Shown here: positions 3 to 7,600 of the stretch, piece by piece
Layout of the letters: each line of letters begins with the position of its first letter
Position numbering within the stretch: position 1 is the first letter of the stretch
Virus record (IMG/VR): IMGVR_UViG_2651869755_000012
Strand: one strand, 5' to 3'
From: a virus
Taxonomy: Duplodnaviria; Heunggongvirae; Uroviricota; Caudoviricetes
DNA: 7,600 bases
Program-made: the position numbers and the translations under genes
Notes under the pieces: generated by a model
Databases searched by the model: none
What the model was told of the DNA's origin: nothing
What the model saw: the letters and a program-made list of their open reading frames with translations, nothing else

Positions 3-188
3 ACCGAAACGCAAGCAGATGAGCTGATTTTTCCGTCCCTTCGCAGGGCAAACCTGGCGCTGCGCAGGGCGAAAAGTGATGTTCAGAAGTGGGAGCGAGT
101 CTGCGCCGCGCTGCGGGAGCTGAACAAGCACCGGGATATTGTTCGACAGATTACTGATTCTTCCCGCCGTGTTGTATCGGAAAAGTGA
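3..188 (+). CDS. 3' end of an upstream phage gene of unknown function (C-terminal 61 codons; 5' end lies outside the window)
   Basis: Open frame from the window edge (codon phase starting at nt 3) to TGA at 186-188; tail reads ...LRRANLALRRAKSDVQKWERVCAALRELNKHRDIVRQITDSSRRVVSEK. Same strand and tight spacing with the next gene. No motif recognised. Confidence 0.45.
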   Translation, partial: TETQADELIFPSLRRANLALRRAKSDVQKWERVCAALRELNKHRDIVRQITDSSRRVVSEK

Positions 189-203
189 TTGCCGGAGGCG
201 CTT

Positions 204-629
204 ATGGCAAAAGTATTTACACAAGAAGAGCGGGAAAAAATTAAAGGGCAGGTTGTTGAACTTGTACGTCTGAGCGGTCGCGAGACGTTGCGGCAACTGG
301 AAGCCAAGACAGGTGCGACAAGATATCTGATGAGTGTTCTCGCCAGAGAGCTGGTTGCCAGTGGCGATGTATACAACTCTGGTTACGGGTTATTCCCGTC
401 TGAACAGGCGCGTAAGGACTGGCAAAATGCTCGCAAAAAACTCTCAAGGGCAAAGGTGAAGAAACCTGCAGTGGTTGATCCGGACCTTATCTGGTCGTTA
501 CCAGACGGCGAAATACGCCGCTACGACAGGCGCCTGAATATAATCTGTCGCGAGTGCCGGAAGAGCGAAGCTATGCAGCGTGTACTGGCATTTTATCAAG
601 GAAATGTTAGGTATTTTAGACGTTACTAG
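204..629 (+). CDS. Hypothetical phage protein (141 aa), function unknown
   Basis: ATG at 204 preceded by GGAGG (193-197) at good spacing; the six-frame ORF 189..629 starts at an upstream TTG which I do not favour. Basic C-terminus; no catalytic motif recognised. Confidence 0.55.
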   Translation: MAKVFTQEEREKIKGQVVELVRLSGRETLRQLEAKTGATRYLMSVLARELVASGDVYNSGYGLFPSEQARKDWQNARKKLSRAKVKKPAVVDPDLIWSLPDGEIRRYDRRLNIICRECRKSEAMQRVLAFYQGNVRYFRRY

Positions 630-782
630 ATTAAAGAGCATTAGTTCAGATGTGAATTGACATTTTCATGGCGCAGGGTAGAGCCAGCGTGGTTGTCCGC
701 TTTGCGTCAAAACCAGATATTACCAGATTTAGACATATATTCCCGATAGCCCTGCTCTGATGCTACACTCTGTGCTATTTTC

Positions 783-1469
783 ATGACCCCAATAAAAATA
801 TTTATGACTATTGCTGATTTCAAACGGCCTAAATTGGAGCTCCCAAACGGGGCAAACAAACTACTACTGCACTCTTGCTGTGCTCCATGTTCCGGTGAAG
901 TGATGGAGGCGCTTCAGGCCTCGGGAATCGACTACACCATCTTTTTCTACAACCCGAACATTCATCCTCAGAAAGAGTATTTAATTCGTAAGGATGAAAA
1001 TATTCGCTTTGCTGAACAACACGGCGTGCCGTTTATCGATGCTGATTACGACACCGACAACTGGTTTGAACGTGCCAAAGGAATGGAATGGGAGCCTGAG
1101 AGGGGGATCCGTTGTACCATGTGTTTTGACATGCGTTTTGAGCGGACAGCGTTGTACGCTGCTGAAAATGGTTTCAGTGTGATCAGCAGTTCACTGGGCA
1201 TTTCACGCTGGAAAAATATGCAGCAGGTTAACGAGTGTGGGCGGCGAGCTGTTGCGCATTATCCGGGTATGGTGTACTGGGATTATAACTGGCGCAAGCA
1301 GGGCGGCTCGTCCCGTATGATTGAAATCAGCAAGCGCGAAAAATTCTATCAGCAGGAATATTGTGGCTGTGTGTATTCTCTGCGCGATACCAATCTACAC
1401 CGCAAATCTCAGGGACGCCCTCTTATCAAAATTGGCCAACTCCACTACGGAAAAGAAGAGAAGGAGTGA
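783..1469 (+). CDS. queH: QueH-type epoxyqueuosine reductase (DUF208 family)
   Basis: Translation carries the Cys motifs I associate with DUF208/QueH: [11 protein letters not shown] (CCAPC at nt 876-890), CTMCFDMRF and YCGCVYSL. Length 228 aa fits the family. Start could alternatively be the ATG at 804; neither has a strong SD. Confidence 0.75.
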
Positions 1470-1501
1470 TTTTATGGATCACCTTTCTGATTGATTTCAT
1501 A

Positions 1502-1530
1502 TTGGCGAGGTGACGTGAGTTAAGTAGAAT
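1502..1530 (+). promoter_or_regulatory. Putative sigma70 promoter of the hok mRNA (TTGGCG -17- TAGAAT)
   Basis: -35-like TTGGCG at 1502-1507, 17-bp spacer, -10 TAGAAT at 1525-1530. Predicted start near 1537 falls on GCTGCGGGTGCTTGAGGC, which resembles the 5' end of plasmid R1 hok mRNA (GGCGCTTGAGGC) as I recall it. Confidence 0.5.
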
Positions 1531-1599
1531 GGCTGCGGGTGCTTGAGGCTATCTGTCTCAGGCATGAACACTGAAAGGCAGATAGAGAAAAGCCCCAGT

Positions 1600-1667
1600 T
1601 AACATTTCGCGTCCTGCAAGACGCTTAACATTAATCTGAGGCCCAATCTATGTCTCACAAATGTAGG
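1600..1667 (-). ncRNA. Putative Sok-like antisense RNA (position inferred, ends uncertain)
   Basis: On the minus strand, TTGCCT (complement of + 1697-1702), 17-bp spacer, TAACCT (complement of + 1674-1679) form a weak promoter that would transcribe antisense across the mok-like start (ATGTCTCAC at + 1650). This matches the architecture of hok/sok loci. No clear terminator was found, so the 3' end is a guess. Confidence 0.25.
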
Positions 1668-1706
1668 TTAGCCTCTTACGTGCCGAAAGGCAAGGGGAAG
1701 CAGGCT

Positions 1707-1862
1707 ATGAAGCAGCAAAAGGCGATGTTAATCGCCCTGATCGTCATCTGTTTAACCGTCATTGTGACGGCACTGGTAACGAGGAAAGACCTCTGCGAGG
1801 TACGAATCCGAACCGGCCAGACGGAGGTCGCTGTCTTCACAGCTTACGAACCTGAGGAGTAA
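1707..1862 (+). CDS. hokD: Hok/Gef family type I toxin (51 aa), HokD-like
   Basis: MKQQKAMLIALIVICLTVIVTALVTRKDLCEVRIRTGQTEVAVFTAYEPEE: single N-terminal transmembrane helix and the conserved family core. From memory this matches E. coli HokD/RelF closely. An in-frame upstream ATG at 1650 (ORF 1650..1862) corresponds to the mok-like start; AAGGGGAAG lies ahead of the ATG at 1707. Confidence 0.85.
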   Translation: MKQQKAMLIALIVICLTVIVTALVTRKDLCEVRIRTGQTEVAVFTAYEPEE

Positions 1863-1930
1863 GAGACCCGGCGGGGGAGTAATCTCCCGCCACCTCTGAT
1901 GTGCCAGGCATCCTCAACGCACCCGCACTT

Positions 1931-1951
1931 AACCCGCTTCGGCGGGTTTTT
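1931..1951 (+). terminator. Rho-independent terminator ending the hok transcript
   Basis: Hairpin CCCGC-TTCG-GCGGG (1933-1946) followed by TTTTT (1947-1951). Confidence 0.7.
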
Positions 1952-1962
1952 GCATTAGTCTG

Positions 1963-1992
1963 GTTGACAAAAATAGAAAAATGCGAAAATAT
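1963..1992 (+). promoter_or_regulatory. Putative promoter of the two-gene insert (consensus -35 TTGACA)
   Basis: Perfect TTGACA at 1963-1968; weak -10 candidate AAATAT at 1987-1992 (18-bp spacer) inside an A-rich tract; the first ATG of the module is at 2028. Confidence 0.4.
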
Positions 1993-2027
1993 GTGGTTTA
2001 CGAATTCTAAAAAAAGCGAAACTTGAA

Positions 2028-2678
2028 ATGAATGAAAATCAGTTAGCTCCTTGTTGGGAATTTCAACCTTATCTTGCTGAAAACTATGTTCGCCACTTGT
2101 TGGCGGAGATCGCTAACGTACTTGAGCAGCTGTACTATCATAAGCACGCATTAGACAGCAACTGGTCTGAAGGTGTAAGGGCTTATGATTGGGTCAGAAA
2201 TCATCTTATTCAAAATGAAGATGCAATTCCTGGCCTTGAGATGATTTCCAAGGGGTTGGACTATGTAGTTGCTTTAAATAAAGTTCCGCTACAATTTACC
2301 AAAGATTGCATTAATAACCCCAAAAAGAAACATCGTCTGCGTCGAAATAAAGTAGAGTATGAGCAGCTCTCATTGTTTGGTGATGTTGAGGCTGAGCAAG
2401 ATATTACATGGCGAGTCATAGCTGAGCCTTTTTTATCCGAAGAGGGCGATGGTGAATTAGAGTCCACACTGCCTCGTTGGGAGGTAGCTCTTGTTGGATT
2501 TAATACTTATGGTGCTCAGATTAGTATAGTTTCTCATCAATCTACAGCATCGATGCCGCTTATGCCTCTTGATTATAACACACTCCCTGACGAAGCGGAG
2601 ATTAATAAGGTGCCTCTTCGTCGGCGTACGAAGGATAAAGATTTGGATGTGAGCAGTGATGGAACATCAGGTGAATAA
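2028..2678 (+). CDS. Unknown-function protein (216 aa), first gene of a two-gene module with the downstream HTH-peptidase
   Basis: Long ORF in an AT-rich segment, ATG at 2028, stop TAA at 2676-2678 overlapping the next gene's start by 20 nt. Acidic protein with a basic patch (KKKHRLRRNK); no transmembrane segment or catalytic motif recognised. Confidence 0.6.
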   Translation: MNENQLAPCWEFQPYLAENYVRHLLAEIANVLEQLYYHKHALDSNWSEGVRAYDWVRNHLIQNEDAIPGLEMISKGLDYVVALNKVPLQFTKDCINNPKKKHRLRRNKVEYEQLSLFGDVEAEQDITWRVIAEPFLSEEGDGELESTLPRWEVALVGFNTYGAQISIVSHQSTASMPLMPLDYNTLPDEAEINKVPLRRRTKDKDLDVSSDGTSGE

Positions 2679-3762
2679 CTTCACTGAGTATCGGGGTGAT
2701 AAGCTCAAACTAGCGAGAATGGCTGTTGGGCTTTCTTGTGAAGAGTTAGCCGAAAAAATTGGCAAGACAAAGCAATTCGTTAGCAAACTGGAGAAGGGGT
2801 GCAGGCCATCGGAGCAATGTCTTGAGTTAATATCTTCAGCGCTTATGATTAAGTCCAGTTTTCTTTTTACTGAACGAAAATACGCTCTGGAAAGTGATGT
2901 CTGCCATTTTCGGAGTAAGAAGTCCAGGACTCAAACGCTGACTAATAGTGTATTGGCCAGGGCTGAGATTCTTAATATTATAATTTCTGCTGTTGAAGGT
3001 GAAATCGAATTTCCTGACGTTAACATACCGGAGCACCCAGGGGCTGAATTACTTACTCCGAATGATATTGAGCGAGTGGCAGAAGATTGTCGCCGTGCCT
3101 GGAATTTAGGTCTTGGCCCTATATCATCAATGGTTAAATTGGCGGAGAGTTTAGGGGTAATCGTTGCGCATGTTACGGGAGTCGATGATCGTGTTGATGC
3201 TTTTACTGTTCACAATAACAGGCCTGTTATCATCAGGAACAATGTTAAAAAAAGCATATGTAGATTTCGCTCTGATTTAGGTCATGAATTAGGGCATTTA
3301 GTAATGCATGAGGGCATAACGACAGGTGATAAACTTACGGAATCACAAGCCGATCACTTTTCGAGCGCCTTATTAGTTCCCAGGTTATCTTTCATTAAAG
3401 AATTTCCACGAATACGAGGTAAGCAATTCGACTGGAATGCTCTGGTTGAATTTAAACTTAGATGGAAAATCAGCCTTAAAATGTGTATTTATCGAGCCAG
3501 CGCATTAGGCTTATTGACCCAGGAACAGGCAAGAACTGGCTATATGCATCTTAATTCCAGAGGGTATACGAGAGTTGAACCTGGTGATGAACTTTTGCGC
3601 CCTGAAGAACCCGGCATGCTGGCCGAGGCGATTGAAATGCTGGATGATGCAACCTGGCTAAGAATTCTTATGAAAACTGGCTTGAGCCAAGATTTAATTC
3701 GTGAGTTGTTCTCCATCAACAGACCTATTACAAATCCAAGAAATATTTTCCAGATTGTTTGA
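2659..3762 (+). CDS. Fused XRE-family HTH / ImmA-IrrE (COG2856, M78-like) zinc metallopeptidase, 367 aa
   Basis: N-terminal XRE-type helix-turn-helix (LARMAVGLSCEELAEKIGKTKQFVSKLEKG) and a central HEXXH zinc site (HELGH at nt 3283-3297, within DLGHELGHLVMHEG), plus about 150 aa of C-terminal extension. ATG at 2659 (GTG at 2656 also possible); stop TGA 3760-3762. Confidence 0.8.
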   Translation: MEHQVNNFTEYRGDKLKLARMAVGLSCEELAEKIGKTKQFVSKLEKGCRPSEQCLELISSALMIKSSFLFTERKYALESDVCHFRSKKSRTQTLTNSVLARAEILNIIISAVEGEIEFPDVNIPEHPGAELLTPNDIERVAEDCRRAWNLGLGPISSMVKLAESLGVIVAHVTGVDDRVDAFTVHNNRPVIIRNNVKKSICRFRSDLGHELGHLVMHEGITTGDKLTESQADHFSSALLVPRLSFIKEFPRIRGKQFDWNALVEFKLRWKISLKMCIYRASALGLLTQEQARTGYMHLNSRGYTRVEPGDELLRPEEPGMLAEAIEMLDDATWLRILMKTGLSQDLIRELFSINRPITNPRNIFQIV

Positions 3763-6578: not shown

Positions 6579-6605
6579 AACCCGCTCAAATGTGCGGGTT
6601 TTTTG
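6579..6605 (+). terminator. Rho-independent terminator (tR'-like) downstream of the Q-like gene
   Basis: CCCGC (6581-6585), 8-nt loop, GCGGG (6594-6598), then TTTTTT (6599-6604). An AT-rich promoter-like stretch at 6532-6580 precedes it, with a TATAAA-like hexamer at 6575-6580 (promoter not confidently resolved). Confidence 0.6.
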
Positions 6606-6677
6606 CTTAACTCTGTGGACCTTTTTATCTGTAGTTGTAATATATGGATATTGTTACAATTTAGGTCGGTGAGCTTA

Positions 6678-7355
6678 ATGGAAGAACAGCACGGTAATTA
6701 CTTTATAAAACGAATTCAGTTGATTGGAAGAGGGGCATTTGGCTTTGTTGAACACGTTAAGGTTTACAACCTCAATAAAGGTGAATGCGGGGATTATGCT
6801 AGAAAGGTTTTAGCACCCGAAAAACCAGAGCTTTTGGCGCAAATAGAGCAGTTTAGAAGGCGTTTTAAAAGGGAGGTTGTGTATCAATCACATTGCGTAC
6901 ATAGCAATATTGTTCCTATTTATTTGTGCGATTTGTTTGTTGAGAATCCATGGTTCATTATGGATAAAGCAGAATGTGATCTTGAGCACGAAATAACGAA
7001 CAACCTTCTTACAACAGATCAAAAAATTTCAATAGTGAAAATGGTATTAGATGGTGTAGCTTACATCCATGCCAAAGGCTATTTACACAGAGATATAAAA
7101 CCCTTTAATGTTTTGCGATTTAGCGACGGAACATACAAGGTGTCTGATTTTGGTCTGGTAAAAGATACGAATCCCGAAGGGGATACCACTAAATTGACCG
7201 AGATCGGTACCCGTATGGGAAGTACAAGATATATGGCTCCCGAGATTTTATATAATGCAGAGTATTCAGTTAAGACTGATGTTTATGCTGTGGGACGGTT
7301 AATTGAAGACTTAAATTTAGATGATAAAAAAATAAAGCCTATCATAGCTAAGTGA
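6678..7355 (+). CDS. Eukaryotic-like Ser/Thr protein kinase (Hanks-type), probably C-terminally truncated by IS insertion
   Basis: Gly-rich loop IGRGAFG (6723-6743), catalytic loop HRDIKPFN (7086-7109), DFG (7146-7154) and APE (7236-7244). ATG 6678 follows GGTGAG at 6668-6673; the track's TTG 6603 start lies inside the terminator. Only about 35 aa follow APE, and the stop TGA 7353-7355 is the first 3 bases of the IS terminal repeat. Confidence 0.75.
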   Translation: MEEQHGNYFIKRIQLIGRGAFGFVEHVKVYNLNKGECGDYARKVLAPEKPELLAQIEQFRRRFKREVVYQSHCVHSNIVPIYLCDLFVENPWFIMDKAECDLEHEITNNLLTTDQKISIVKMVLDGVAYIHAKGYLHRDIKPFNVLRFSDGTYKVSDFGLVKDTNPEGDTTKLTEIGTRMGSTRYMAPEILYNAEYSVKTDVYAVGRLIEDLNLDDKKIKPIIAK

Positions 7356-7600
7356 ACCGCCCCGGGTTTCCTGGAGAGTATTTTATCTGTGAACTCAGGC
7401 TGCCAGATCATCGTTTCCGATGGAAGCATAATAAGCTTTTTCTGCTTCTGCCGGAGGAGTATGGCCCAGCCTTTCCAGCAATCGTCGATTGTTATACCAG
7501 TCCACCCACGTGAGTGTGGCCAGTTCCACTTCTGCACGGTTTTTCCAGCTCTTACGGTGTATTACCTCCGCTTTGTAAAGACCATTGATGCTCTCCGCCA
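7353..7600 (-). mobile_element. Terminal part of an IS3-family insertion sequence (IS629/IS1203-like), extends beyond the window
   Basis: Terminal inverted repeat begins TGAACCGCCCCGGGTTTCCTGGAGAG at 7353; the minus strand encodes the C-terminus of an IS3-family transposase. I recall both as IS629-like. Confidence 0.8.
7395..7600 (-). CDS. IS3-family transposase OrfB, C-terminal fragment (5' end outside the window)
   Basis: Minus-strand translation ...AESINGLYKAEVIHRKSWKNRAEVELATLTWVDWYNNRRLLERLGHTPPAEAEKAYYASIGNDDLAA, stop (complement of 7395-7397). WVDWYNNRRL...LGH is the conserved C-terminal motif of IS3-family (DDE) transposases. This is a different frame from the track ORF 7283..7537. 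Confidence 0.8.
   Translation of the reverse strand, partial: AESINGLYKAEVIHRKSWKNRAEVELATLTWVDWYNNRRLLERLGHTPPAEAEKAYYASIGNDDLAA

Follow-up and report, generated by a model that had tools for sequence, protein, structure and literature searches.

Why would a temperate phage carry an enzyme for the final step of queuosine (Q) formation when queG, the host gene for that step, is found in 5,426 of 5,426 complete E. coli genomes, and hence in all that carry the phage gene? The question arises from a 7,600-nt stretch of lambdoid prophage DNA, referred to here as the window, in which an intact plus-strand ORF of 228 codons (window 783..1469) had been predicted to encode a QueH-type (DUF208) epoxyqueuosine reductase, carried as a moron upstream of hok. 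Queuosine influences how fast and how accurately His, Asn, Asp and Tyr codons are decoded. E. coli does not synthesize the corrin ring and obtains B12 by uptake through BtuB and, to our knowledge, the last Q step is the sole one in the pathway for which E. coli requires a vitamin that it is unable to produce. The host enzyme, QueG (YjeS), uses cobalamin and a [4Fe-4S] cluster to convert oQ34 to Q34 on tRNA (PMC5372724, PMC4646009), and the latter report, citing Frey et al. 1988, states that the final Q step in E. coli was shown to need cobalamin. QueH, which is not homologous to QueG, is a cobamide-independent alternative (PMC6461909), and the same conversion is predicted for the prophage enzyme. 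Staphylococcus aureus has both enzymes, and their different expression has been read as reflecting cofactor availability (PMC13443448). The universal presence of queG implies that the substrate oQ is made, and tgt and queA are core E. coli genes (PMC5372724).

The assignment of the window protein to the QueH family was examined at the level of profile, residues and fold. The Pfam QueH profile (PF02677), the check that the original prediction had proposed, aligned to the 783..1469 ORF over profile positions 1-174 of 175 with a score of 221.5 bits (E 1.1e-65), relative to a curated cut-off of 23.5 bits. The crystal-structure sequences of Thermotoga maritima QueH (TmQueH) also matched the window protein, with 175 residues aligned to 7lc5 at E 7.8e-22. 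The predicted CCAPC, CxxC and CGC motifs are all present as C32-C33-A-P-C36, C111-x-x-C114 and C194-G-C196 (228-aa numbering), so that seven of seven cysteines are kept and no Cys ligand is lost on alignment. Each of these positions is Cys in at least 97% of the aligned sequences among 150 family representatives (50% identity clusters), which were drawn from 4,775 proteins with E ≤0.001 among 1.84 billion. The same seven are invariant in an alignment of 36 sequences that are 35-72% identical to the query, and the window protein keeps every invariant residue of the diverse family alignment. An AlphaFold2 model of the protein is of moderate confidence (pLDDT 72.7, pTM 0.73), and the five best matches in a Foldseek search of the PDB with this model were all QueH at probability 1.0, with TM-scores of 0.54-0.60 on the query and 0.71-0.72 on the target (best 0.60/0.72).

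Comparison with the structurally characterised TmQueH (PDB 7LC5, 7LC7 and 9DEU) further places the protein within the family. The two share the Pfam family and the CC...C-x-x-C...C-G-C cysteine set, although their identity is only about 30%. The C9S and D13N mutants of TmQueH are present in the PDB, which indicates that these positions have been functionally probed. Asp13 of the Thermotoga enzyme is replaced by Cys in the window protein and in 115 of 119 aligned family representatives, which places the window protein in the majority (CCAPC) type, for which we know of no solved structure. The protein is already named QueH by RefSeq ("epoxyqueuosine reductase QueH") and UniRef, and chromosomal relatives with 80-91% identity in Enterobacter, Kluyvera, Erwinia, Serratia and Proteus carry the same name; the corresponding PHROGs entry, phrog_3217, is labelled "unknown function". 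Despite the RefSeq name, the NCBIfam models gave no match to the queH product, and the identification rests on the Pfam and PDB matches. Based on the profile match, the cysteine set, the fold and 91% identity to an annotated chromosomal QueH, it is near certain that the gene product is a QueH family epoxyqueuosine reductase, as had been claimed, and it would be of the [4Fe-4S]-type, cobalamin-independent class.

The ORF at 783-1469 exists as predicted, but its first ATG is probably not the true start. ATG 804 is invariant across all prophage and chromosomal orthologues compared, whereas ATG 783 is missing from the chromosomal orthologues and from one prophage allele. The coding sequence within this longest ORF is therefore most likely 804..1469 (plus strand, 221 aa), and the NCBI/RefSeq annotation also begins at 804. 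No Shine-Dalgarno sequence was found before ATG 804. On the minus strand, a 50-aa ORF (707-859) overlaps the 5' end of queH and is accompanied by a promoter-like site at 823-795; since promoter-like sites in this region occur at chance level, the minus-strand ORF is probably not a gene.

How is queH embedded in the phage genome? Several E. coli strains have prophage DNA with 100% identity to the window; in one of them, 118UI, the prophage adjoins ompW. The gene order is that of a lambdoid early-right/nin region, in which replication genes are followed by DUF1627, DUF977, queH, hok/sok, RmrT/RmrA, two small ORFs, DUF968, RusA, antiterminator Q and a Ser/Thr kinase. On the left, the backbone is represented by a DUF977/Ren-like exclusion gene (189..629, plus strand; PF06163 E 7e-28; phrog_142, "Ren-like exclusion protein"), which in 76 of the 80 best IMG/VR loci is the gene directly 5' of queH. 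The right side of the slot, which may be backbone or cargo, is formed by a hok/sok type I toxin-antitoxin (TA) locus (1502..1948, plus strand). It consists of a promoter-like segment (1502-1530), the sok/hok leader (1537-1712, Rfam sok), hokD (1707-1862) and a hairpin (1931-1948). The position upstream of hok was thus predicted correctly, the Pfam HOK_GEF match, the Rfam sok match and the annotated hokD all lying immediately 3' of queH.

The limits of the queH insertion can be read from the points at which homology breaks. In prophages that lack queH, backbone homology ends at window 721-723 (L165 and L168), and homology to their hok locus resumes at 1472-1483. Homology to chromosomal queH loci extends over 739-1476 in Enterobacter hormaechei and over 754-1473 in Scandinavium, and the downstream sequences of the prophage alleles part ways after TGATTTTAT. 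Taken together, these break points delimit an insertion of about 750 bp (about 724-1476) composed of the ORF, 65-80 nt of 5' sequence and 6-7 nt of 3' sequence. The 5' part of the cassette (724..803, plus strand) was captured together with queH and contains the putative promoter described below, and the right end (1470..1476, plus strand) lies 6-7 nt past the stop codon. The gene is therefore a discrete insertion between backbone genes, and in related prophages different cargo separates the DUF977 gene from hokD.

Whether such a cassette should be called a moron depends on which feature is considered. Like the morons of lambdoid phages, it is gene-sized, sits between conserved backbone genes, is missing from related phages and has a promoter-like element, and to this extent the original prediction stands. 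It differs from them in that its own terminator and a distinct base composition are both missing. From 1469 up to the hok locus no terminator-like hairpin was found, and the first one lies past hok, at 1931-1948. GC content does not distinguish queH (0.44-0.51) from its flanks (0.46-0.55). Rfam models detected no riboswitch or other RNA near queH, sok excepted. The nature of the cargo also sets it apart, since a tRNA-modification enzyme is unlike the TA, exclusion or virulence genes of lambdoid morons and of the Qin relBE-hokD module. From these sequence comparisons, the locus is best explained as a horizontally captured and presumably functional cassette that a lambdoid prophage carries as cargo in its early-right region.

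The conserved 5' segment suggests how the gene may be expressed. An extended -10-like element (TGnTAnnnT), TGCTACACT, is located at 761..769 (plus strand), about 35-43 nt 5' of ATG 804. In an alignment of three prophage and four chromosomal loci, TGCTACA, inside TGCTACA(C/A)T, is the longest run of invariant columns upstream of the gene, whereas the remaining upstream sequence has diverged between prophages and chromosomes. Of the 13 closest genome loci (L005-L017), 11 have a TGnTAnnnT between -40 and -44, in ten cases as TGCTAC, and Erwinia queH has a conventional -35/-10 promoter at the equivalent place. A generic sigma-70 scan of the plus strand upstream of queH returned no promoter, only the chance-level minus-strand site at 823-795. 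The 761-769 element has no recognisable -35, which accounts for its being missed by that scan. Since the element is conserved between prophage and chromosome, it seems that a native promoter, putative and seen as a -10-like motif only, was captured along with queH. In two prophage alleles the element is degenerate, reading TGCTACACA in O7:H15 ST70 and TGCCACACT in strain 7/2, and this could reflect a relaxed need for the native promoter once the gene became phage-borne.

The chromosomal relatives indicate where the cassette came from. The nearest ones outside Escherichia and Shigella are encoded on the chromosomes of Enterobacter, Kluyvera and Scandinavium, with 86-91% protein identity, and those of Erwinia, Serratia, Rahnella, Pectobacterium, Proteus and Sodalis follow at 78-86%. 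The chromosomal QueH of Enterobacteriaceae (E. hormaechei, Kluyvera ascorbata and Scandinavium sp.) and of other Enterobacterales shares with the window copy its length, start, invariant residues and a -10 element about 40 nt upstream. In contrast to the phage-borne window copy, queH in Erwinia, Serratia, Rahnella, Pectobacterium and Proteus has conserved synteny and is free of phage neighbours; synteny conserved at the genus level (Erwinia, Serratia and Proteus among others) marks these chromosomal copies as housekeeping genes. Synonymous sites between the window gene and chromosomal queH are saturated (dS 1.0-2.0 or more), and the prophage alleles differ from E. hormaechei by dS 1.3-1.6.

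We hypothesize that the cassette is self-expressed and provides the host with B12-independent conversion of oQ34 to Q34 on its tRNA, through its own promoter in the lysogen and through read-through after induction, and we give this reading a probability of roughly 0.6. According to this model, a phage ancestor would have taken about 750 bp from an Enterobacteriaceae chromosome, comprising queH and about 65-80 nt of 5' sequence with the -10 element, and the cassette would have been inserted into the variable slot flanked by DUF977 and hok/sok before spreading over many lambdoid backbones in Escherichia and Shigella. In the lysogen queH would probably be transcribed from its own promoter, and after induction additional transcription would probably arrive by read-through from the early-right operon. 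The cobalamin-free iron-sulfur enzyme would then turn oQ34 into Q34 on tRNA-Asp, -Asn, -His and -Tyr. Since QueG requires cobalamin and E. coli has no de novo synthesis of it, completion of Q would become independent of B12 supply and uptake. Two considerations count against a selective benefit of this kind: we are aware of no way in which oQ-tRNA and Q-tRNA differ physiologically in E. coli, and the gut is rich in B12 analogues, so that QueG should work there.

The same transcriptional arrangement allows for an alternative in which the benefit falls in the lytic phase, such that early-right expression raises the Q/oQ ratio and alters translation of phage or host-response genes at NAU/NAC codons, with little effect in the resting lysogen. 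The gene is co-oriented within the early-right operon, the DUF977-queH junction is free of terminators, and the degenerate -10 of the two prophage alleles would be expected if read-through were enough. Moreover, a preprint on Shewanella (10.64898/2026.03.05.709803) reports induction of the oQ-to-Q step (queG) upon phage infection, with a shift in the Q/oQ ratio, which shows that this step can be a control point. However, the native promoter element is kept in most alleles, a lambdoid lytic cycle is short relative to slow tRNA turnover, and there is no evidence that oQ and Q differ in decoding; we regard a primarily lytic role as possible but unlikely.

A related question is whether a phage-borne QueH belongs with the queuosine-pathway genes already described in phages. 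In the clusters concerned, dpdA is found with folE, queD, queE, queC and sometimes queF or gat-queC, and these phage-borne genes serve to synthesize preQ0-type bases and place them in phage DNA without QueA, QueG or QueH (PMC6884629). Hutinet et al. 2019 found no QueA, QueG or QueH homologue in the viruses analysed there, and dQ was undetected in the phage DNAs tested (PMC6884629). In 118UI, the annotation of the 41.5 kb surrounding queH contains no dpdA, queC, queD or queE, and no DpdA/TGT-like or preQ0-synthesis gene was found among the window ORFs. It follows that queH is a lone last-step gene, and the view that QueH lies outside the phage DNA-modification set agrees both with the published survey and with this neighbourhood. 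A literature search combining QueH, DUF208 or epoxyqueuosine with phage or prophage found no paper on phage-borne QueH. Thus, the gene itself is known and annotated, and its carriage by phages, its cassette structure and its prevalence appear to be undescribed.

The slot that queH occupies is not reserved for it. In the Qin prophage of K-12, relB-relE-hokD lies upstream of rem-ydfU(DUF968)-ydfT(Q), so that relBE takes the position of queH relative to hokD, DUF968 and Q, and the presence of relBE upstream of hokD in Qin-type prophages had been correctly stated. It had been proposed from this that a module swap may have occurred. Other contents do occur in the slot, but a two-way exchange between relBE and queH does not describe the pattern, as there are at least six alternative contents. 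In other prophages these include relBE, an FRG-domain gene, an AAA ATPase, an alpha/beta hydrolase, and a set of DUF4406, DUF4752 and two unknown genes. The interval between DUF977 and hokD (window 189-629 to 1650; L165-L168, L003) is thus a hypervariable cargo hotspot of lambdoid prophages, and it is perhaps worth mining for new defence genes. An empty slot was not found with a chimeric query joining the end of DUF977 to the start of hok, since all places in which at least 80% of this query was covered contained queH. Downstream of queH the content also varies: among the 80 best IMG/VR queH loci, hok follows directly in 50 (seven of these with RosmerTA), and in another 20 a methyltransferase-containing module replaces the hok coding sequence. 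As a separate observation, hokD homology between K-12 Qin (L003 4030-4289) and the window begins only at 1693 (1693-1952), relative to an annotated hokD start at 1707, which indicates that the K-12 relBE-hokD module lacks the sok/mok leader that the window has.

The company that queH keeps bears on another explanation, that of a defence or counter-defence role in which QueH shields the lysogen through the modification state of Q-family tRNAs, or acts on a substrate other than tRNA oQ. Anticodon nucleases, colicin E5 among them, attack the tRNAs of the Q family. The slot can instead hold an FRG-domain protein, an AAA ATPase or relBE, and the neighbours of queH in its prophages include RosmerTA, a kinase resembling PD-T4-6, a Kiwa-like module and a probable restriction-modification module. 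Defence- and TA-like cargo elsewhere in the slot hints that selection at this site may concern conflicts among phages and not metabolism. However, the queH product has no PADLOC match, its 86-91% identity to Enterobacteriaceae QueH (80-86% for other Enterobacterales) and its retention of all invariant residues give no sign of neofunctionalisation, and no oQ-like base is known in DNA, in line with the negative result for dQ cited above. On balance, a conflict role of this kind is very improbable.

Is a phage-borne queH a rare curiosity? The original prediction had called it unusual, which is true of cultured phages and of the literature but not of E. coli itself, in which the cassette is present in 995 of 5,426 complete genomes (18%), as compared with queG in all of them. 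It is nearly always single-copy and chromosomal, and 985 of the 995 carriers retain at least 80% of queH (about 99% full length); one truncated pseudogene was seen, in H90. A 1.5-kb query made of the DUF977 3' end, queH and hokD is at least 80% covered in 741 genomes, whereas at least 80% of the whole window is covered in only 25 of the 5,426. Carriers include VR50, APEC O1, APEC O18, ST131, O104:H4 and an O157:H7 strain. When one genome per species was compared, a lambdoid context was seen only at the loci of Escherichia albertii and Shigella flexneri, and queH is kept on many different backbones beside varied neighbouring cargo. To the roughly 189 IMG/VR contigs with this queH lineage, a profile scan adds no more than about 26 hits to distant QueH. 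The sole clear cultured phage in a collection of 50,697 phage records is Escherichia phage HannyBb, whose copy (95% identity) adjoins hok in the nin region and is annotated "hypothetical protein". Most matches in the phage collection outside E. coli phages were unannotated faecal contigs or very large records of dubious nature, and these were left out of the phage count.

Such a distribution lends itself to an analysis of selection among phage-borne copies. Six prophage alleles (the window, HannyBb, S. flexneri, O7:H15 ST70, 95-3322 and 7/2) are all intact and differ from one another by dS of 0.02-0.44 with dN/dS of 0.03-0.09. The rationale for assigning this constraint to the phage-borne state is based on the phage-specific junctions that these alleles share and on their mutual dS of at most 0.44, well below their distance to E. 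hormaechei, which together place both divergence and constraint in the time during which queH was phage-borne. By these estimates, prophage queH is under strong purifying selection. A neutral hitch-hiker, one that has no effect and persists because its carrier prophages are common, would be in keeping with full redundancy with universal queG and with rare truncated copies such as that of H90, yet it is the least probable account of all. Against it stand the dN/dS values (for dS of up to 0.44), the full length of about 99% of copies and the retention of the cassette across many backbones and neighbouring cargos.

What would follow if the self-expressed, B12-independent cassette is the correct reading? 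Phage queH may then free about one in five E. coli strains, including ExPEC/APEC, ST131, O104:H4 and some O157:H7, from cobalamin for the completion of Q, with Q-tRNA formed in B12-poor niches or after BtuB loss where other strains would hold oQ-tRNA; we put this forward as a tentative and somewhat doubtful extension. The niches meant are urine, blood and aerobic environments, and BtuB, the B12 receptor that might be lost, is also a phage and colicin receptor. Possible consequences would include NAU/NAC decoding, stress and virulence traits and perhaps the supply of queuine to the animal host. If the enzyme is active, strains would differ under B12 scarcity in whether they hold Q or its epoxy precursor, and this would be set by a mobile element, a difference not considered in work on Q in K-12. 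Activity would also correct the published generalisation that phages have only the DNA-modifying half of the pathway, and would add a tRNA-modification enzyme to the known cargo of lambdoid prophages. Should the whole model be true, queH would give temperate coliphages their first tRNA-modification "auxiliary metabolic gene" for which the cofactor logic is defined.

Several other features of the queH prophages were noted. The methyltransferase-containing module that replaces hok is 2.3 kb long (L090 6866-8882, the region after window 1642) and encodes a 374-aa protein with the C5 DNA-methyltransferase motif FCGAGG beside a 331-aa ORF; from these sequences it is probably a restriction-modification system. 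In strain 7/2 (L171 3396-5035), the place of hok after a queH with 97.5% identity is taken by a hypothetical gene and an anti-phage gene resembling KwaB (Kiwa), a further case of defence cargo beside the cassette. The window itself contains a RosmerTA-type module on the plus strand, at 2028-2678 and 2656-3762, whose ORFs overlap by 23 nt. The 216-aa product corresponds to PADLOC RmrT (E 5e-25), and the 368-aa product, with HTH and M78-peptidase domains, corresponds to RmrA (E 6e-105) and also matches the NCBIfam spr1629 repressor/antitoxin family. Its presence in only seven of the 80 best IMG/VR queH loci marks RosmerTA as a separate, rarer cargo insertion 3' of hok. After antiterminator Q, a Ser/Thr kinase gene (6603-7355, plus strand) resembles defence kinases, with matches to PADLOC mad6 (E 1e-40), PD-T4-6, Stk2 and phrog_2361, and in 118UI a PP2C phosphatase gene comes after it. 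The window ends in an IS3-family element (7358-7600), in which an ORF at 7395-7529 (minus strand) resembles a transposase C-terminus. TC_EC10-like strains match only to 7357, which places the IS directly after the kinase stop codon in the window variant.
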